From NCBI GenBank assembly GCA_965279005.1, contig CBDIHK010000024.1, forward strand, positions 166,562 through 230,561: a stretch of DNA of 64,000 nucleotides, given 5' to 3'. The stretch comes from Alteromonadaceae bacterium (lineage in GTDB: Bacteria; Pseudomonadota; Gammaproteobacteria; Enterobacterales; Alteromonadaceae). A program made the translations under genes and the position numbers. The notes below the pieces were generated by a model. That model saw only the letters and a list, made by a program, of their open reading frames with translations. It had not been told where the DNA came from and ran no database searches. This document shows, in pieces, positions 55,114 to 64,000 of the stretch. The stretch's first letter is position 1, and every line of letters starts with the position of its first letter.

Positions 55114-56493
55114 TTAGCCGATAAAGCCAATCGGTGCCTGGCCACTGGCCGGGTCGTAGAACCGGGTAATGTTTGGCAAAATGTCTGGCAACACGCTTGG
55201 CGCCACGCCAAACCAAAGGGCTAGTTCACCAAAGTATTGGTCAAGCGAGGTAGTTGGCATCAACACCCCCCTACCGGTATCCAATGGATTGCCAAGCTGG
55301 AGGCTAGGGTAGGTGCCATAAGCGGAACCGCCCCGTACTGCCCCACCCATGATCATGGCGTTGCCGCCCCAGCCATGGTCTGAACCTCGGCCATTGGAAG
55401 ACAGGGTACGGGCGAAGTCTGAGGTAGTGAAGGTGGTCACTTGGTTGGCCATACCCATTTCATTAATGGCAGCTTGGAACGAACTTAAACCTGCATCTAA
55501 AACTGTGAGCAACTGGTTCAGGGACGCAGTGAGTTCATCGTGGTGATCCCATCCGCCCAAAGTGACAAAAAACGTTTGCCGCTGCATCCCCAGGGTTTGG
55601 TTGGCTGCGATGGTTTTGGCCACCATTTGCATTTGCGACGAGAATTCATCGTTACCAAATTGGGTCGTGAATGGAGATGTTCCCGCCACTGCTGCGGCAA
55701 ATTCAGAGTTGGCCGCAATAGAGTCGTTGAATAGTTTCTGGTATGTGCGCCGGAACAAGTTGTTATATTCCTGCCCATAGATTTGGTTAATGGCTGCGCT
55801 CCTGGTGCTATTGCCCAACTCATCTTCAATGCCACTAATGGTGGCCGTCGGGGCATCGGCGCTACCGACGCTATAATAATCAGTCAGCCTACCTGCTTGG
55901 AACTCATTCGCGCCTGAAGTCGAGATGCTCATGGAAATACGCTGGCTACTGTTTTGTGAGGCTAGGATATCCGCCATGCGGCCGCCCCAGCCGGTGGCGC
56001 TGCGCACATCTGGAATAGCCGTTTGCCATTGGCTGATTTGGTCTGAGTGGGACTGCAAGCCCAACGGCAATTTTGCGGTACCATTGGCCAATGCCTGGGT
56101 ACTGGTAGGTTCAACCAAAGTACCGACGTTGCTTAAAAAGGCCAGGTTGCCACTGTTGTAGAGGGATTGCAGCCCAGTCATAGCTGGATGCAGGCCCAAG
56201 GTGCGCCCGTTGTTCTGGCTATTATTGATCGCAAGCAATTGCGCTTTGGCCAAGGCCAAGTCGGTGCGGGTATTACGGTATTGCTGGTAATAAGTATCGT
56301 CGCTTGGCACCAGCATATTGAACGAGTCGGCACCACCTGCCAATAACACGCATACCAGGGCTTTGTAGTCATTGCTTTGGGCGCTGGCCTTGGCCATTGC
56401 CCCAAGCTGGGCTGCGCCAGCCAAAGTCATGGCTGAAAGGGCATGGCCCGAATGGCGTAAGAATGTCCGTCTTGAAAGTTTATGTTGTTTCAT
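55114..56493 (-). CDS. DUF1501-family protein (sulfatase/alkaline-phosphatase-like fold) with a Tat signal
   Basis: 459 aa. Twin-arginine motif SRRTFLR, plus LLAGGADSFN and GGWDHH, which are typical of DUF1501. Confidence 0.9.
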   Translation of the reverse strand: MKQHKLSRRTFLRHSGHALSAMTLAGAAQLGAMAKASAQSNDYKALVCVLLAGGADSFNMLVPSDDTYYQQYRNTRTDLALAKAQLLAINNSQNNGRTLGLHPAMTGLQSLYNSGNLAFLSNVGTLVEPTSTQALANGTAKLPLGLQSHSDQISQWQTAIPDVRSATGWGGRMADILASQNSSQRISMSISTSGANEFQAGRLTDYYSVGSADAPTATISGIEDELGNSTRSAAINQIYGQEYNNLFRRTYQKLFNDSIAANSEFAAAVAGTSPFTTQFGNDEFSSQMQMVAKTIAANQTLGMQRQTFFVTLGGWDHHDELTASLNQLLTVLDAGLSSFQAAINEMGMANQVTTFTTSDFARTLSSNGRGSDHGWGGNAMIMGGAVRGGSAYGTYPSLQLGNPLDTGRGVLMPTTSLDQYFGELALWFGVAPSVLPDILPNITRFYDPASGQAPIGFIG

Positions 56494-56555
56494 TTTGCTA
56501 AACCTTTATCTAATAGCCAACGGCAGATGCTTGTCTGCCGCTGGCCTTAATCAAC

Positions 56556-59195
56556 TTAAATTGCCACTGCGTAATCAGGGGAAATGGCAAGGAGATAAAC
56601 CGCGGCCGCGACGCGCTCCTGGTGGTCTTCAATGGCTTCGATTACCGTTTTGATGGCTTCCCGCGTGCCGCTGGTTAGGGTGCCGTAGGTCATAACCGTA
56701 TCTAGCCGGTCAAGCAGGGCATCGGCGTCGGCTGCTAAGGCAACTTCTTCTGAAAAATCCAATTTTTCTGCGGGCAGTGCCCCTGAATTATCTAATACCT
56801 GTCCAGTTTCCAACGAGTAGTAAATAACATTCTTGATATCCATAATGGTGGAGGCATTGGTGATTTGGAACTCAGGCGCTACCAAGCCAGCGTCTTTCAG
56901 TTCACCATTGGGTGCATAACTCGGTAAAAAGAAATTAAACACGCTAGGTGCTGACAACACGTATTGCCTGATGGTGGCTGCCATTTCATAGCCATCATCG
57001 CTATAGGTGTTGTCGCTGGATGTGGCGTTGAAGGTCCGCATTAAATGGGCAACCCGCAAGAAGGGTTCCCGCAACCGGCCATCTGAGGATGAGGCCAGGT
57101 TAGGGGCTTGGCGCGCTTCTGGATCCATCAGGATGGCTCGGACAACCGCTTTCATGTCGCCCCGGGCTGAACCTGTTTCGCCATTGAAGGCGGCAGTTAC
57201 ACGTGCAATATAGGCTGGGCTGGGGTTTGACTTGACCAACCGCTGGATCAGCTGTTTGCCGATAAATGGGCCAACGTTAGGGTGGTTGAACAGGTTGTCG
57301 ATGGCGGCATTGATATCTTGCATACCGGTTTGTCCCGCTGGCACAACTTGTCCGCGCAACAAGGTCTTGCTACTGGTGTCGTGGTGTTGCTCATACATTT
57401 TCATGGGCAGCAAGAAAATGTTGGTATCAGAGTCAGATTCCAATTCATCAACATCCCGCTGGCCAAAAGCGTTGGGATCATCGCTGTTCCAGCTTAAGCC
57501 GGTGAATACCTTGGCGAATTCACGTATTTCATCTTGGCCATAGGTTGGGATAGGGTCGCCAGAAGCATCCAATTTGCGCGAACCATCAGGATTCAATTCG
57601 TACAGCCCTATGCTAAACAGCTGCATGACTTCTCGGGCGTAGTTTTCGTCTGGGAAGGTGCCTTTGCTAGGGTCTGCTTTTGCGTTGTGGATATGGCTTA
57701 GGTAAATCCCCATGGTGTGGCTAAGGGTTACGTCTTTCAACAAATCCCTAAAATTGCCCAAGCTATTTTTTATCAAAAGGTCGTAGTAACCCGCCATAGC
57801 AAAGTTATTAATGCCAATTTCCTCAACATTGCTTGAGACAACGAATATTTCACTCAACGCCATGGCAACCCGCTGCCTAACCACATCTGGCGACGTCATC
57901 ACCGTAGTCCACCATCCATCTACCCAAAAGCGTTCAGGATCACCTAGGCGTTCAAATATTACTTCAAATTCTTCGTCGCTCAGGTCTTCATTGGCCAAAT
58001 AGAATTTCTCGACTTCAGCCATTAGGAACTCGGCAAAGGGCAAGGTATAACTCGGCGGCAACTCAAATTGTTGCTCCAACCACATATCAGGACCGGTGGC
58101 AGCAACTTGGGTAATAGTGGCGTAGTTGGCGCCTAGCGTTGCTTGTGACAAGAAGCGCGAGGCGTCATTGGCGGCGTCTTTGTCAACCGTCATTACAGTC
58201 CTGTCAGCCGCTGGATTTGGATTTACAAAACCTGAAGGCTGCTCAACTGTGTTTTCTTCGCAGTCTTCTTCCTGGCCTTCTTCACACTCATCAGAGAAGT
58301 CTTCGCAGTCTTCTTCCTGGCCTTCTTCGCACTCATCCATGAAGTCTTCACAGTCTTCTTCCTGGCCTTCTTCACACTCATCAGAAAAGTCTTCGCAGTC
58401 CTCTTCCTGGCCGTCTTCGCACTCATCTGTGAAGTCTTCGCAGTCTTCTTCCTGGCCGTCTTCGCACTCATCAGAAAAGTCTTCGCAGTCTTCTTCCTGG
58501 CCTTCTTCACATTCATCAGAGAAGTCTTCGCAGTCTTCTTCCTGGCCTTCTTCACACTCATCAGAGAAGTCTTCGCAGTCTTCTTCCTGGCCTTCTTCGC
58601 ACTCATCTGTGAAGTCTTCGCAGTCTTCTTCCTGGCCTTCTTCACACTCTTCAGAGAAGTCTTCGCAGTCTTCTTCGTTACCTTCTTCGCACTCTTCAGT
58701 GAAATCTTCGCAGTCTTCTTCTTGGCCTTCTTCGCACTCTTCAGTGAAATCTTCGCAGTCTTCTTCGTTACCTTCTTCACACTCATCAGAGAAGTCTTCA
58801 CAGTCTTCTTCTTGGCCGTCTTCGCACTCCTCTGTGAAGTCTTCGCAGTCTTCTTCGTCACATTCCTCGGGTGGGCCGATTATCTCTATACACCACTCTG
58901 GGTCTTCGATGCAGATCCGCAAAAGTTCACGACAGAGCTCGCGGTCTTCGCAGATTTCTTGGATGAATTCACAGGCTTCGTCGCCATCGCAATCTATGTC
59001 CTGGCCAACGATTTGTCGCCTTAGTTGCTGGCTTGCAGATAATGCTGAAAAAGCGGGTTGGTTGATAAGTTTTGCTGTGTTCTCTTTGGCAAAAATGTCA
59101 AATGTGGTAAATGCCAATGTGAGGTAAAGCAGCGAAAACAACATGCTGTGCCAGGCAAACCTTCGGGTTTTGCCGGAAGAAGTATTGTATTTCAT
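56556..59195 (-). CDS. DUF1800-family protein with an N-terminal Cys-rich hyper-acidic tandem-repeat extension
   Basis: 879 aa. A Sec signal peptide, then 13 copies of CEDF(T/S)(D/E)ECE(E/D)G(Q/N)EED, then a DUF1800 body (PDENYAREVMQLFSIGL). Confidence 0.88.
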   Translation of the reverse strand: MKYNTSSGKTRRFAWHSMLFSLLYLTLAFTTFDIFAKENTAKLINQPAFSALSASQQLRRQIVGQDIDCDGDEACEFIQEICEDRELCRELLRICIEDPEWCIEIIGPPEECDEEDCEDFTEECEDGQEEDCEDFSDECEEGNEEDCEDFTEECEEGQEEDCEDFTEECEEGNEEDCEDFSEECEEGQEEDCEDFTDECEEGQEEDCEDFSDECEEGQEEDCEDFSDECEEGQEEDCEDFSDECEDGQEEDCEDFTDECEDGQEEDCEDFSDECEEGQEEDCEDFMDECEEGQEEDCEDFSDECEEGQEEDCEENTVEQPSGFVNPNPAADRTVMTVDKDAANDASRFLSQATLGANYATITQVAATGPDMWLEQQFELPPSYTLPFAEFLMAEVEKFYLANEDLSDEEFEVIFERLGDPERFWVDGWWTTVMTSPDVVRQRVAMALSEIFVVSSNVEEIGINNFAMAGYYDLLIKNSLGNFRDLLKDVTLSHTMGIYLSHIHNAKADPSKGTFPDENYAREVMQLFSIGLYELNPDGSRKLDASGDPIPTYGQDEIREFAKVFTGLSWNSDDPNAFGQRDVDELESDSDTNIFLLPMKMYEQHHDTSSKTLLRGQVVPAGQTGMQDINAAIDNLFNHPNVGPFIGKQLIQRLVKSNPSPAYIARVTAAFNGETGSARGDMKAVVRAILMDPEARQAPNLASSSDGRLREPFLRVAHLMRTFNATSSDNTYSDDGYEMAATIRQYVLSAPSVFNFFLPSYAPNGELKDAGLVAPEFQITNASTIMDIKNVIYYSLETGQVLDNSGALPAEKLDFSEEVALAADADALLDRLDTVMTYGTLTSGTREAIKTVIEAIEDHQERVAAAVYLLAISPDYAVAI
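58263..58847 (-). repeat. 13 tandem 45-bp in-frame repeats inside the DUF1800 gene
   Basis: The period-45 unit gcagtcttcttcctggccttcttc(a/g)cactcatc(a/t)g(a/t)gaagtcttc is visible directly in the sequence. Coordinates were derived from the translation. Confidence 0.9.
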
Positions 59196-59275: not shown

Positions 59276-59305
59276 AAACGATTGGTTCTTGCGAACTATT
59301 CCACA
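59276..59305 (-). promoter_or_regulatory. ECF-type promoter candidate upstream of the DUF1800-DUF1501 genes
   Basis: The minus strand reads GTGGAATAGTTCGCAAGAACCAATCGTTT. This is 20/29 identical, with the same spacing, to the motif upstream of the S8 protease gene. Confidence 0.45.
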
Positions 59306-59381
59306 ATCTAAAAAATTGCTGCTGAGCAAAGCGTGTTTTTTTCTGCTAGTCTGCAAGCAAAGCCACTAGTTTGTTTTGAGC

Positions 59382-60290
59382 ATGAAATTAAAGTGTTTGC
59401 TGTTTTCTGTGTTAGTTGTCCTGGCCAACCACAACGCCTATAGCAAAGAAGTGCATAGTTTTAACGGCGCCATCGAACTCGCCACAGAAAATGATTCCAC
59501 GGTTGTGGTGGATGAAATTGACAATGTTGCGCGGGACAGCAGTAGTAGCTGGAAATACAAACTCAATGCCCGCTACCGCTACCGCCCTTATGAGCACACC
59601 AAGGCGTCCTTGAGTTTTACCTTCTCTGATAAAAACTACAAGCAAGACGATAGTTTCAACAGTGAATTACGCATGTTTTCAGCTAGTATCAGCAGGGAGT
59701 TTGAGCATTTCACTTTAGGGCTAAGGGCACAGGATATCGATTCTAAACTGGGCGGCCAGGATTTTTTAACGATAGAACAAGTATCTCCTTACCTCACTTT
59801 CTTTTTGAGTAAAAAGTGGTTTGTTAACTTGAGTTACCGCCATGCTGATAAGGAAATTGTCAGTAATTCGTCCCGTTCCGGCGACAGTGATTTGTTTAAT
59901 GCCGACTTGTACTTTTTCCAACAAGGGGTACGCCAGTTCTGGATAGCCTCAGTGCGTCACAAGTCTGAACAAGCCCAAGACCCCATTTTTAGCTATGATC
60001 TGCAACAATTTAGGTTAGTGTATTCCCAGCGCTTTGATTGGTGGCAATGGCAGCATAAGCTGCGGTTATCGTGGCGTTTCCAGGAGCGGGACTACGATTC
60101 AGCTATCAATCCTGATTTAAATGACTTTCGCCGCGACATAAGGCGCCAGTGGCGTTTCGAATGGGAAGCTGAGTTCCATGAAGATTGGTTTTTGATTTTG
60201 GAGTTAAAACGCAATGACAATAATTCCAATTTTACGACATCAGATTACAACCAAAATGTGACCGGCTTAGCGCTTAAGTACGAGTTTTAG
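59382..60290 (+). CDS. outer-membrane beta-barrel protein, unknown family
   Basis: Signal peptide MKLKCLLFSVLVVLANHNAYS, alternating amphipathic strands, and a C-terminal ...LALKYEF (terminal Phe). The track ORF starts at TTG 59376. Confidence 0.7.
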   Translation: MKLKCLLFSVLVVLANHNAYSKEVHSFNGAIELATENDSTVVVDEIDNVARDSSSSWKYKLNARYRYRPYEHTKASLSFTFSDKNYKQDDSFNSELRMFSASISREFEHFTLGLRAQDIDSKLGGQDFLTIEQVSPYLTFFLSKKWFVNLSYRHADKEIVSNSSRSGDSDLFNADLYFFQQGVRQFWIASVRHKSEQAQDPIFSYDLQQFRLVYSQRFDWWQWQHKLRLSWRFQERDYDSAINPDLNDFRRDIRRQWRFEWEAEFHEDWFLILELKRNDNNSNFTTSDYNQNVTGLALKYEF

Positions 60291-63200
60291 CGAGCAGTTC
60301 TGTCACTTTTTGCTTTAATTTCACTTGCACTTTTTGAGTGCCCAATACAGGCAATAACCCATGGCCAAACTGTGGGTCAAAGCCGCGCTTACCCAAGTCT
60401 AAACAATTGTTAAACAAGTCCATCCAAGGTGCAGGGCCCGTTGTTTGGTAGTGTCCTTGGGCATTGGCTGCCAAATAAGCTGCAACAAATGGGGCGGCCA
60501 TGGAAGTACCGGTCTGGGTGCCATAGCTTTGGTTTGGTTGTGCAGTGATCACATCAACCCCATATGCCGCTAGATCGATATGTTGGCCCTGTACAGCGCG
60601 TTTATACAAATTCAAGTCGCTATCCACTGCGGTAACCGCAATGGCGCAATCGTAAGCCGCAGGAAACAGCGGACTCGATAAAGGGCCGGCATTACCTGCT
60701 GCGGCCACCAAGGTAATGCCTTTTTCACACAGCTTGTTTACAGAAAATTTAAGCAGGCGGTTAGCAGGACCGGCGAGGCTCATATTGACCACCTTGACGT
60801 CCTGCTGCAATAACCAATCTAAGCCCTTGATAATGTTTAAGGTTGTGGCAATGCTACCGCCTTGTTTATCGTTAAAAAACACCGAAGCACTATAGAGTTG
60901 GGCATTAGGTAGTAGCCCGCGGTAATCGTTACTATCGGCTACCAGGATTGACGCAACTGCAGTACCGTGTTGGTAGTCTTTTTTATGTTGTCCTTGGATA
61001 AAATGCCGTTGTTTGATCTGTGCAGCTTGCAAAGATTGGTGTTCGGTATCGACAGCGGTATCCACCATACCTAATTTTATACCGTTGCCATTTAGTTGCA
61101 TGACTTGGCCTGGAATGATGCCGCCTTTATCTGCTTTATTTGATTGGGCATAGCGATATATATGGTTGAAGTCAGCGATGCTATTGTCCCGGTTTAACCT
61201 AGTTAAAACTGTTTGGTAGTCCCGTTGCAAGTCAAATGAGGCTGGTGCGACTACTTTTGCCACAATGGCATCTAGTGCTTCCAGGCTCTCTTGCTCTTTG
61301 AATTGATAACCTTCTTTTTCTAATTCGGCTTTAGTCTCTGCATCTGCCATGATCAACCATTCGTTTGTCCATATCTCGTTGCCGTCAAAGTCTTCAAACA
61401 ACTGATCGGTTTCATCAATCACTGCTTGTTCTGGCTGTTCCTGTTCTTGCCAGAAGCGGCTTAATGCTGCTTCCGGTGATGGCTGGTCATTGAATCCGTC
61501 CTTGCGCATTTCGTTAGTCCCATCGAAATCGAAGTCGAAAGCATCATGGCCGTTTGTACCGCCTTCTTCAGTATCTAAATCTTCATCATCTTCGTTCCCG
61601 AACCCTACTTCATGTTCGGAGCCTTCATGGTCATCTTCGTTTTGGTGGTCGAGTTCTTCGTCTTCAAAATTGTCCTCTTCTGCAGCGAATTCATCCTCGC
61701 CTTCGAATTCGCCTTCATCTTCGAATTCGCCCTCGTCTTCGAACTCACCTTCATCTTCGAACTCCCCCTCGTCTTTGAATTCATCCCCCTCTTCGAATTC
61801 ATCCCCCTCTTCGAATTCATCCCCCTCTTCGAATTCATCCCCCTCTTCGAATTCTTCCTCGTCTTCGAATTCATCCTCATGTTCGAATTCATGCTCAGCT
61901 TCGAATTCGTCTTCATCTTCGAATTCATGCTCACCTTCGAATTCGTCTTCTAGTTCTTCGTCGAATATTTCATCTTCTTCAAATTCTTCATCAAAACCAT
62001 CTTCAATTTCATTTTCTAGATCGTCTTCCGTTTCATCTTCCCAATCGTTTTCCAGCTCATCCTCGGTGTCTTCTTCTATCTCCTCTTCGACTTCGTCCTC
62101 GGTGTCTGCTTCGATTTCCTCTTCGACTTCATCCTCGGTGTCTTCTTCGATCTCGTCTTCGACTTCATCCTCGGTGTCTTCTTCTATCTCGTCTTCGACT
62201 TCATCCTCAGTGTCTTCTTCGATTTCCTCTTCGACTTCGTCCTCGGTGTCTTCTTCGATTTCCTCTTCGACCTCATCCTCGGTGTCTTCTTCGATTTCCT
62301 CTTCGACTTCGTCCTCGGTGTCTTCTTCGATTTCCTCTTCGACCTCATCCTCGGTGTCTTCTTCGATTTCCTCTTCGACCTCGTCCTCGGTGTCTTCTTC
62401 TATCTCGTCTTCGACTTCGTCCTCGGTGTCTTCTTCGATTTCGTCTTCGACCTCATCCTCGGTGTCTTCTTCGATTTCGTCTTCGACCTCATCCTCGGTG
62501 TCTTCTTCGATTTCCTCTTCGACTTCGTCCTCGGTGTCTTCTTCGATTTCGTCTTCGACTTCATCCTCGGTGTCTTCTTCGATTTCGTCTTCGACCTCAT
62601 CCTCGGTGTCTTCTTCGATTTCCTCTTCGACTTCGTCCTCGGTGTCTTCTTCGATTTCCTCTTCGACTTCATCCTCGGTGTCTTCTTCTATCTCGTCTTC
62701 GACTTCGTCCTCGGTGTCTTCTTCGATTTCCTCTTCGACTTCATCCTCGGTGTCTTCTTCGATTTCGTCTTCGACCTCATCCTCGGTGTCTTCTTCGATT
62801 TCCTCTTCGACTTCATCCTCGGTGTCTTCTTCGATTTCCTCTTCGAATTCATCCTCGGTGTCTTCTTCGATCTCGTCTTCGACTTCGTCCTCGGTGTCTT
62901 CTTCGATTTCCTCTTCGACCTCGTCCTCGGTGTCTTCTTCGATTTCGTCTTCGACTTCATCCTCGGTATCTTCTTCGATCTCGTCTTCGACCTCGTCTTC
63001 GGTGTCTTCTTCGATCTCGTCTTCGACTTCATCCTCGGTGTCTTCTTCGATTTCGTCTTCGACCTCGTCCTCGGTGTCTTCTTCGATGTCATCCTCTATA
63101 TCATCTTCCCAATCATCTTCAGGATCAGACATAAAAAAACTATTGTTGGAATGGTTGTTGGGTAATAGGGCAAAATCCGATCTGATACGTTGGGCCGTTG

Positions 63201-63303
63201 CCTGATTTGCAATACCGAGTGACGCGCAATAGGCCAATACCAGCAATAACAATGCTGTTGGTTTTAGTTGCTTTATGAAGAGACGCAGATTAATTTTGAT
63301 CAT
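60274..63303 (-). CDS. S8 (subtilisin-like) serine peptidase with a giant polyacidic tandem-repeat region between the signal peptide and the pro/catalytic domains
   Basis: Catalytic triad context MVDTAVD / HGTAVAS / GTSMAAPF. The N-terminus MIKINLRLFIKQLKPTALLLLVLAYCASLG starts at ATG 63303. About 29 copies of EDTEDEVE(D/E)EIE. Confidence 0.9.
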   Translation of the reverse strand: MIKINLRLFIKQLKPTALLLLVLAYCASLGIANQATAQRIRSDFALLPNNHSNNSFFMSDPEDDWEDDIEDDIEEDTEDEVEDEIEEDTEDEVEDEIEEDTEDEVEDEIEEDTEDEVEDEIEEDTEDEVEEEIEEDTEDEVEDEIEEDTEDEFEEEIEEDTEDEVEEEIEEDTEDEVEDEIEEDTEDEVEEEIEEDTEDEVEDEIEEDTEDEVEEEIEEDTEDEVEEEIEEDTEDEVEDEIEEDTEDEVEDEIEEDTEDEVEEEIEEDTEDEVEDEIEEDTEDEVEDEIEEDTEDEVEDEIEEDTEDEVEEEIEEDTEDEVEEEIEEDTEDEVEEEIEEDTEDEVEEEIEEDTEDEVEEEIEEDTEDEVEDEIEEDTEDEVEDEIEEDTEDEVEEEIEADTEDEVEEEIEEDTEDELENDWEDETEDDLENEIEDGFDEEFEEDEIFDEELEDEFEGEHEFEDEDEFEAEHEFEHEDEFEDEEEFEEGDEFEEGDEFEEGDEFEEGDEFKDEGEFEDEGEFEDEGEFEDEGEFEGEDEFAAEEDNFEDEELDHQNEDDHEGSEHEVGFGNEDDEDLDTEEGGTNGHDAFDFDFDGTNEMRKDGFNDQPSPEAALSRFWQEQEQPEQAVIDETDQLFEDFDGNEIWTNEWLIMADAETKAELEKEGYQFKEQESLEALDAIVAKVVAPASFDLQRDYQTVLTRLNRDNSIADFNHIYRYAQSNKADKGGIIPGQVMQLNGNGIKLGMVDTAVDTEHQSLQAAQIKQRHFIQGQHKKDYQHGTAVASILVADSNDYRGLLPNAQLYSASVFFNDKQGGSIATTLNIIKGLDWLLQQDVKVVNMSLAGPANRLLKFSVNKLCEKGITLVAAAGNAGPLSSPLFPAAYDCAIAVTAVDSDLNLYKRAVQGQHIDLAAYGVDVITAQPNQSYGTQTGTSMAAPFVAAYLAANAQGHYQTTGPAPWMDLFNNCLDLGKRGFDPQFGHGLLPVLGTQKVQVKLKQKVTELLAKTRT
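61777..61848 (-). repeat. four tandem 18-bp repeats (encoding GDEFEE), flanked by related GEFEDE repeats
   Basis: gaattcatccccctcttc occurs four times in tandem. Confidence 0.85.
62038..63081 (-). repeat. about 29 tandem 36-bp in-frame repeats inside the S8 peptidase gene
   Basis: The + strand unit is gac(t/c)tc(a/g)tcctcggtgtcttcttc(g/t)at(t/c)tc(c/g)tcttc. I counted 29 EDTEDE units in the translation. Confidence 0.9.
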
Positions 63304-63360
63304 AAACGCACGCAAAAAAGATAGCTGCCTATAATAAGGGCTTGATTAACCATTACCTTA

Positions 63361-63389
63361 TTAACGTTTAAGTATAGTGAACTATTTCA
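63361..63389 (-). promoter_or_regulatory. ECF-type promoter candidate upstream of the S8 peptidase gene
   Basis: The minus strand reads GTGAAATAGTTCACTATACTTAAACGTTA (GAAAT-N17-CGTTA). Confidence 0.45.
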
Positions 63390-63412
63390 CTGATTTAATA
63401 ATTGTAAAAAAG

Positions 63413-63441
63413 GCTGGAATAAGTTTCAGGCTATAACCGTT
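63413..63441 (+). promoter_or_regulatory. ECF-type (autoregulatory) promoter candidate upstream of the ECF sigma gene
   Basis: CTGGAATAAGTTTCAGGCTATAACCGTTA (GGAAT-N17-CGTTA). It ends 20 nt before the ATG. Confidence 0.4.
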
Positions 63442-63460
63442 ACCTTCACAGAGCGACAGG

Positions 63461-63964
63461 ATGCAGATATCGCAAAATGAACTGAAAAAAATACTGGTTA
63501 AGGAAATGCCCCGTCTACGCAGGTTTGCCTATTCATTGACGGGAAGTAAAGCGGATGCGGACGATTTGGTGCAGAACCTGATCCTGAAAATGCTCAATAA
63601 AGGGTTGCCAGATTCGGTACAACCATTGCCCTGGTTGTTCCGTGTTTGCAAAAACCTCTGGTTAGATGAAATTAGAGCACGAGATGTGAGGGTCAGGGCG
63701 GTGCAAGAAAAGAAAATCCCACAAGCAGAACAAGAATCGAAACAAGATTTGCACGAAATCGCCTATTCAGCTGAGCAGGTGATGCAGGTGATGCAATCTT
63801 TACCAGAGGAGCAACGTGTTATTATCAGCCTGGTGCTGGTGGAGGGCTTTAGCTACAGCGAAGCGGCTGATGTGCTGGAGATCCCCAAAGGTACCGTTAT
63901 GAGTCGATTGTCACGGGCGCGGCATAAGTTGCTCGACTTATTAGAGCAAGGTAAACAGAGTTAA
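63461..63964 (+). CDS. ECF-family RNA polymerase sigma-70 factor
   Basis: 167 aa. Region 2 (LRRFAYSLTGSKADADDLVQN, PWLFRVCKNLWLDEIR) and region 4 (GFSYSEAADVLEIPKGTVMSRLSRARHKL). Confidence 0.9.
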   Translation: MQISQNELKKILVKEMPRLRRFAYSLTGSKADADDLVQNLILKMLNKGLPDSVQPLPWLFRVCKNLWLDEIRARDVRVRAVQEKKIPQAEQESKQDLHEIAYSAEQVMQVMQSLPEEQRVIISLVLVEGFSYSEAADVLEIPKGTVMSRLSRARHKLLDLLEQGKQS

Positions 63965-63966
63965 TT

Positions 63967-64000
63967 ATGAAGATCGAAGATCAAGAGTTGTTGTCGCAAT
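63967..64000 (+). CDS. start of a probable anti-sigma factor (truncated by the window end)
   Basis: The ATG lies 2 nt after the sigma factor stop (MKIEDQELLSQ...). The call rests on position only. Confidence 0.35.
   Translation, partial: MKIEDQELLSQ

Follow-up and report, generated by a model that had tools for sequence, protein, structure and literature searches.

Predicted divergent ECF26-type promoters between a sigma factor gene and an S8 protease gene in an Alteromonadaceae bacterium

Within a 64,000-nucleotide stretch of DNA from an Alteromonadaceae bacterium (hereafter the window; G000:C24:166562-230561, in a 6.28-Mb genome with 47% G+C), a gene for an ECF sigma factor and a gene for an S8 protease are arranged divergently, with a gap of 157 bp separating the sigma ATG (63461, + strand) from the protease ATG (63303, - strand). 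Two promoter-like motifs lie in this gap. The arrangement raises the question of whether both genes are read from promoters that are recognized by the neighboring sigma factor itself, as was proposed in a first-pass annotation of the sequence.

The sigma protein comprises sigma-2 and sigma-4 domains only, without region 3 or region 1, and scores well above the cut-off of the NCBIfam sigma70-ECF model (85 bits versus 42.9), while all of its matches to NCBIfam equivalog models fall below their cut-offs. The anti-sigma protein encoded immediately downstream is 243 residues long and features a weak zf-HC2 anti-sigma motif (residues 6-26), a single hydrophobic segment (IWYLPVAASVAFVFIIATYLM), and a C-terminal domain with two cysteines. 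On the other side of the gap, the S8 subtilase gene has 1009 codons and a possible alternative TTG start upstream at 63315, and its product combines a signal peptide with a very long acidic repeat region. A divergent DUF1800-DUF1501 gene pair is located past an outer-membrane barrel gene that follows the protease gene. The features of the locus are compiled in Table 1.

Table 1. Predicted promoters, transcription starts, and genes at the sigma/S8 protease locus (positions are those of the window)
Feature	Position	Strand	Details
P_sig, predicted ECF26-type promoter of the sigma/anti-sigma operon	63416..63441	+	-35 GGAATA 63416-63421; 16 nt; -10 CGTT 63438-63441
P_prot, predicted ECF26-type promoter of the S8 protease gene	63363..63388	-	-35 GAAATA 63388-63383; -10 CGTT 63366-63363
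A/T-rich segment between both -35 elements	63389..63415	.	27 nt
Predicted sigma-operon transcription start	63449..63450	+	By analogy with the SMa0142 start, 9 nt after CGTT; leader ~11-12 nt
Predicted protease-gene transcription start	63354..63355	-	By analogy with the SMa0142 9-nt distance; leader ~51 nt to ATG 63303
ECF sigma factor gene	63461..63964	+	167 aa; Pfam Sigma70_r2 residues 16-75, Sigma70_r4_2 residues 105-157
Anti-sigma gene start	63968..64000	+	3 nt past the sigma stop codon; gene extends beyond window end; full gene L001:2168-2899
S8 subtilase gene, divergent predicted target	60274..63303	-	Pfam Peptidase_S8, E 1.2e-32
Third motif copy (GGAATAGTTCGCAAGAACCAATCGTT), predicted DUF1800-DUF1501 operon promoter	59277..59302	-	81 nt upstream of DUF1800 ATG
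DUF1800 gene	56556-59195	-	Pfam DUF1800; motif upstream
DUF1501 gene	55114-56493	-	Pfam DUF1501; in pair with DUF1800 (55114..59195)

Both motifs were found where the first-pass annotation had placed them, with the sequences that it quoted, and both fit the pattern GRAAT-N17-CGTTA. Written as pentamers, the + strand motif reads GGAAT (63416-63420), a 17-nt spacer, and CGTTA (63438-63442), and the - strand motif reads GAAAT (63388-63384), a 17-nt spacer, and CGTTA (63366-63362). While the sites themselves were confirmed, their distances to the genes had to be revised: 18 nt rather than 20 nt lie between the + strand CGTTA and the sigma ATG, and the distance from the - strand CGTTA to the protease ATG is 58 nt rather than about 55 nt (46 nt if the TTG is used). 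Exactly two matches to the pattern were identified in the window versus 0.24 expected, these two being arranged back to back with each facing its own gene, and none of 100 shuffled sequences contained two or more. However, the pattern was drawn up after the sites had been seen. The real support therefore comes from the match to the independently published ECF26 consensus and from positional conservation in relatives.

Screening of the region for other signals revealed only weak sigma-70-like sites (9 of 12 positions), which were fewer than in shuffled sequence, and no terminators above chance level. Likewise, no match to an Rfam RNA family was detected between positions 59000 and 64000 at E-values up to 1, and a search for repeats within the intergenic region returned nothing meaningful. 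The A/T-rich segment that separates the two -35 elements may serve both promoters as an upstream (UP-like) element.

Group ECF26 includes the sigma factors RpoE1, RpoE3, RpoE4, and RpoE6 of Sinorhizobium meliloti, and its cross-species consensus has been given as GGAATA at -35 and GT at -10 (Lang et al., 2018, PMC6180224, where Staron 2009 and Rhodius 2013 are cited as sources of the consensus). The rpoE6 gene (SMa0143), which is accompanied by ecfR6 (SMa0144), and the serine protease gene SMa0142 are transcribed in divergent directions (PMC6180224), and a divergent protease is described there, with reference to Staron 2009, as widely conserved among ECF26 sigma factors. Overexpression of RpoE6 increased SMa0142 transcript levels by log2 4.7; the SMa0142 promoter is GGAATA-N16-CGTT, with a transcription start 9 nt after CGTT as mapped by RNA-seq and 5'-RACE (PMC6180224). 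RpoE6 also activated a heterologous ECF26 promoter by about log2 8 (PMC10880074). ECF26 was retained as a group in the 2021 re-classification of ECF sigma factors, in which other ECF26 subgroups have different neighbors, such as catalase or cytochrome b561; the main text of that paper makes no mention of S8 proteases or of the GGAATA-N16/17-CGTT motif (PMC7826278).

To relate the window to this system, we compared it with the corresponding stretch of S. meliloti pSymA (L093), in which the published promoters were located. The window sigma factor exhibits 38% identity to RpoE6 over 146 residues (E 3e-28), the catalytic part of the window protease 36% identity to SMa0142 (E 7e-51), and the C-terminal domain of the anti-sigma protein 31% identity to EcfR6 (E 1e-7). 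In the reverse comparison, the best match of RpoE6 in the Alteromonadaceae genome was the window sigma factor (E 6e-22; next best 1e-12), and that of SMa0142 was the window S8 protease. Judged by sequence, the sigma factor is probably a member of group ECF26 and the counterpart of RpoE6. Applying the S. meliloti 9-nt rule to the three motif copies, we infer by analogy that transcription starts at about 63449-63450, 63354-63355, and 59268.

The two systems share the order of genes (an S8 protease gene divergent from a sigma gene that is followed by an anti-sigma gene), the type of promoter on the protease side (GGAATA-N16/17-CGTT), and an anti-sigma protein with an N-terminal anti-sigma motif (a weak zf-HC2, as in EcfR6), a single membrane-spanning segment, and a periplasmic domain that contains two conserved cysteines. 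In both, the targets are mostly local. They differ in that the sigma gene in the window has a canonical GGAATA promoter, whereas the mapped rpoE6 start has RpoD/RpoH-like motifs (PMC6180224), which indicates that not all ECF26 members autoregulate from a canonical promoter. In S. meliloti a canonical promoter instead lies inside rpoE6, ahead of ecfR6, whereas the two promoters in the window are back to back and 27 nt apart. The additional targets differ as well, being SMa0139, SMa0146, and SMa0148 in S. meliloti and, as predicted, DUF1800-DUF1501 here. Furthermore, the window locus is chromosomal and belongs to a marine gammaproteobacterium, and the acidic tract of its protease is hugely expanded. 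Because SMa0142 (L093, 8823 downward) also has a short poly-Asp tract and a Gly/Ser-rich tract right after its signal peptide, acidic tracts preceding the protease domain may be typical of the family, with a great expansion in the window's protease.

When the sigma alignment was used to scan genomes, one for each species, 80 loci were returned, of which 39 were examined. At 33 of these 39 loci a homologous S8 protease gene was divergent from the sigma gene, and at 34 a homologous anti-sigma gene lay downstream of it. Hosts of the cassette include Alteromonadaceae, Pseudoalteromonas, Aliiglaciecola, Catenovulum, Parahaliea and other Halieaceae, Woeseiaceae, and Chromatiales, as well as Erythrobacter, Porphyrobacter, and other Sphingomonadales. 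Of 31 cassettes, 29 had the motif G[GA]AAT-N16/17-CGT on the sigma side and 23 had it on the protease side, with 22 having it on both. These counts are not to be read as independent trials because the loci are related to one another. Shuffled intergenic regions of the same 31 cassettes gave 0.4 loci with a sigma-side motif and 0.01 with both. At the level of sequence, the motif pattern of these cassettes holds across two classes of Proteobacteria.

The two sides of the cassette differ in how closely they keep to the consensus. All 29 family loci that have the sigma-side motif carry GGAATA at -35, with spacers of 16 or 17 nt, versus 9 of 24 family loci on the protease side, where the others carry GAAATA, GGAATT, GCAATT, or GAAATT. 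This asymmetry (L013-L057) suggests that the protease promoter is the weaker of the two or that it needs more sigma factor or a helper. In most family loci the two -35 pentamers are 6-10 nt apart (range 6 to 61) as measured between their 5' ends, which compares with 27 nt in the window.

Closer relatives were evaluated as well. One sigma ortholog (56-80% identity) was present in each of four other Planctobacterium-group genomes, one of which is that of Planctobacterium marinum K7, and no ortholog was detected at E-values up to 1e-20 in 36 genomes of other genera. The protease and sigma genes are arranged divergently in all five genomes of the genus, each of which contains both motifs in the same orientation and always with a 17-nt spacer. 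When the sigma sides were aligned on the -35 element, GGAATA and CGT were invariant in the five genomes. The A-rich run upstream of the P_sig -35 element is also kept in the genus, as is a CACAG/CTCAG block at the expected sigma-operon transcription start, which is found in all five species. All five genomes share AGTGAAATA, CAC, and CGT without change on the protease side, at identical spacing. The remaining intergenic DNA has diverged among the genus genomes and varies in length.

One further element is kept at the start of the sigma gene: (A/T)GGATG at the start codon (63456-63463) is present in all five congeners. For a ribosome-binding site, the purine-rich stretch is unusually near the start codon; the leader is predicted to be only about 12 nt long.

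The protease side contains a second potential binding site. An inverted repeat, GTGAA-N4-TTCAC (equivalent to GTGA-N6-TCAC; 63377-63390, - strand), overlaps the protease-side -35 element and is present in four of the five genus genomes. The CRP consensus of Escherichia coli is TGTGA-N6-TCACA, with which the repeat agrees at 8 of 10 core positions. The conserved block on this side (AGTGAAATAGTTCACT) might then be mainly a site for a dimeric factor of the CRP/FNR type that controls the protease gene instead of, or besides, the ECF sigma factor, and such a role would be in keeping with the invariance of AGTGAAATA and CAC in the genus, which goes beyond what the family-wide -35 element requires. 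However, the repeat is degenerate in one congener (ACAC in G002) and absent outside of the genus, where only G(G/A)AAT and CGT persist. A dimer site also does not explain why CGT is found at a fixed 17 nt in five species, the center of the repeat at about -29.5 from the predicted start is not a position from which CRP activates, and both P_sig and the DUF1800 site would be left unaccounted for. We therefore regard a mainly CRP/FNR-type site as improbable. An ECF26-type P_prot leaves room for additional control: the protease-side -35 element is off consensus (GAAATA) and set amid extra conserved bases, so that a further regulator may act there, and the CRP-like repeat could, with low probability, provide such an extra layer.

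Given that the motif carries little information, the case rests on position and conservation, and this is reflected in scans of the complete genome. The pattern G[GA]AAT-N17-CGTTA is not enriched, with 20 matches versus 10-24 at other spacings. The stricter TG[GA]AATA-N16-CGTT has 18 matches versus 3-9 at other spacings, three of which are at the locus. When a matrix was built from the genus sites, the third motif copy upstream of DUF1800 was the top-scoring site genome-wide, and the four best sites comprised the three at the locus and one before a cas2 pseudogene, a ranking with some circularity, given that the matrix included the sites of the window itself. A matrix built only from loci outside of the genus was too weak for ranking across the 6.3-Mb genome and did not place the window sites first. 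Motif scans of the rest of the genome identified no convincing distant target. Other intergenic matches precede unrelated genes (the cas2 pseudogene, a GspE/PilB-like ATPase gene, a MurB-like gene, and a small lipoprotein gene), lack conservation support, and were rejected as targets.

Two further observations concern matches elsewhere in the genome. An identical TGATGGAATATGAAGAATACATGAGCCGTATACG occurs at least nine times (C1:9679, C11:17540, C11:61011, C21:257342, C25:270538, C28:393138, C28:425317, C30:499691, and C30:620620 of G000) and therefore lies inside some multi-copy element, its match to the promoter matrix being due to chance. The cas2-like frame (MKRFPAIVSYDISCNKSRRKFARILEA...; G000 C27:371516-371830, L011 about 2017-2330), which is preceded by a high-scoring motif copy, contains an in-frame stop and looks like a decayed CRISPR adaptation gene.

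Could these motifs be genuine ECF-type promoters that are read by a different ECF sigma factor with overlapping specificity? Motifs resembling GGAA(T/C)-N16-17-CGT are common to several ECF groups, and RpoE1, RpoE4, and RpoE6 of S. meliloti cross-activate each other's targets (PMC6180224, PMC10880074). However, the genome encodes no second ECF26-like sigma factor; the closest of seven other ECF candidates is 30% identical to the window sigma factor, and none of the seven has a GGAATA-type motif upstream. Furthermore, the motifs travel with the sigma gene across two classes of Proteobacteria. Recognition by another sigma factor is accordingly very improbable. Hardly credible is the last alternative, that the motifs arose by chance in A/T-rich intergenic DNA and that the genes are transcribed from sigma-70 promoters: the low information content of the motif and its lack of genome-wide enrichment would favor it, but position, orientation, and spacing are kept in five of five congeners and in most of the 31 distant loci and arise in almost no shuffled sequence, and the sigma-70-like sites are weak and at or below chance level.

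The taxonomic distribution of the third motif copy is much narrower than that of P_sig and P_prot. It is kept in the nearest relative (G003). In G004 the DUF1800 gene is about 45 kb away and lacks the motif, and G001 and G002 have no DUF1800 gene; DUF1800 was therefore rejected as a conserved target, and this pattern indicates that DUF1800-DUF1501 joined the predicted regulon recently and in this lineage only.

The outer-membrane barrel gene (59376-60290, + strand, 304 aa) is convergent with the protease gene, the 3' ends of the two overlapping by 17 nt, and is a companion of the cassette in 29 related loci, mostly in Gammaproteobacteria. It was considered as a target and rejected, as no motif was found upstream of it in the window or in 17 of 19 orthologous loci, the exceptions being those in G001 and G004. 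In these two genomes, neither of which has an adjacent DUF1800 gene, the DNA that separates the barrel gene from polB still contains two divergent GGAAT-N17-CGT motifs, one facing each gene (G001, locus L008, 8937 on the + strand and 9087 on the - strand; G004, locus L009, 9309 on the + strand and 9459 on the - strand). They may have been left over from an arrangement like that of the window. Four of 13 barrel orthologs matched Pfam SlipAM, the Slam or type 11 secretion barrel (best E-value 2.4e-9), and the window's own copy scored just under the cut-off. The barrel protein lacks the N-terminal periplasmic domain of Slam proteins and the S8 protease lacks the C-terminal barrel domain of the known cargo type; the paper on type 11 secretion cargo mentions neither sigma factors nor subtilases.

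Collectively, the agreement with the published consensus, the conservation of the sites among relatives, and the analogy with S. meliloti make it very likely that P_sig and P_prot are divergent promoters read by the neighboring ECF26-type sigma factor and that the third copy drives DUF1800-DUF1501 in this lineage. The first-pass annotation had gone beyond locating the motifs and had proposed both that the sigma operon is autoregulated and that its sigma factor directly controls the protease gene. At the sequence level, the former gains support from P_sig in all five congeners and from the sigma-side motif in 29 of 31 cassettes. The latter is likewise favored, by P_prot in all five congeners and, by analogy, by the induction of SMa0142 by RpoE6.

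In the circuit that we propose, the membrane anti-sigma protein would hold the sigma factor, and all three promoters would be silent. An envelope signal would free the sigma factor, upon which P_sig, P_prot, and the third copy would fire together. The -35 element, GGAATA or, in the case of P_prot, GAAATA, would be bound by domain 4 of the sigma factor, and the -10 element CGT(T), located 16-17 nt downstream, by domain 2. P_sig would drive the sigma/anti-sigma operon, resulting in positive autoregulation, while P_prot would drive the gene for the secreted S8 protease and the third copy would drive the DUF1800-DUF1501 operon in the lineage of the window.

Such a circuit resembles the ECF26/Pecf26 switches (PMC6180224, PMC10880074) in its promoter elements (-35 GGAATA, -10 (C)GT, and a spacer of 16-17 nt) and in having an autoregulated sigma operon with a co-transcribed membrane anti-sigma protein. 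It also resembles the RpoE-RseA system of E. coli and the SigW-RsiW system of Bacillus subtilis, in which a membrane anti-sigma protein holds the sigma factor until an envelope signal frees it, the sigma factor amplifies itself from its own promoter, and promoters combine an AAC/AAT-type -35 with a CGT-type -10. It differs from the latter two in ECF group and in promoter sequence.

A more speculative extension, to which we assign a low probability, is that the S8 protease is itself part of the switch. The sigma factor would first amplify its own synthesis, and its higher level would then induce the protease as a periplasmic enzyme, which would cleave the two-cysteine periplasmic domain of the anti-sigma protein and lock the system on by positive feedback. 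This idea derives from the back-to-back promoters in almost every cassette of the two proteobacterial classes and from the asymmetry of the -35 elements (GGAATA in 29 of 29 loci on the sigma side versus 9 of 24 on the protease side). If true, two hyper-acidic secreted proteins would be released by this switch as well in this lineage.

The S8 protease/sigma/anti-sigma arrangement is already described for ECF26 sigma factors of the RpoE6 type, and the assignment made here is therefore a sound but ordinary annotation; the promoters themselves are nothing new in principle. What the predicted promoters would define is one small local regulon, comprising the sigma/anti-sigma pair, a hyper-acidic subtilase, and, in this lineage, a hyper-acidic DUF1800-DUF1501 operon. 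These observations add marine Gammaproteobacteria to rhizobia as hosts of the RpoE6-type ECF26 cassette. Planctobacterium constitutes a second, distant, and cultivable host with distinctive target proteins, and this could help to find the role of the cassette and the signal that induces it.
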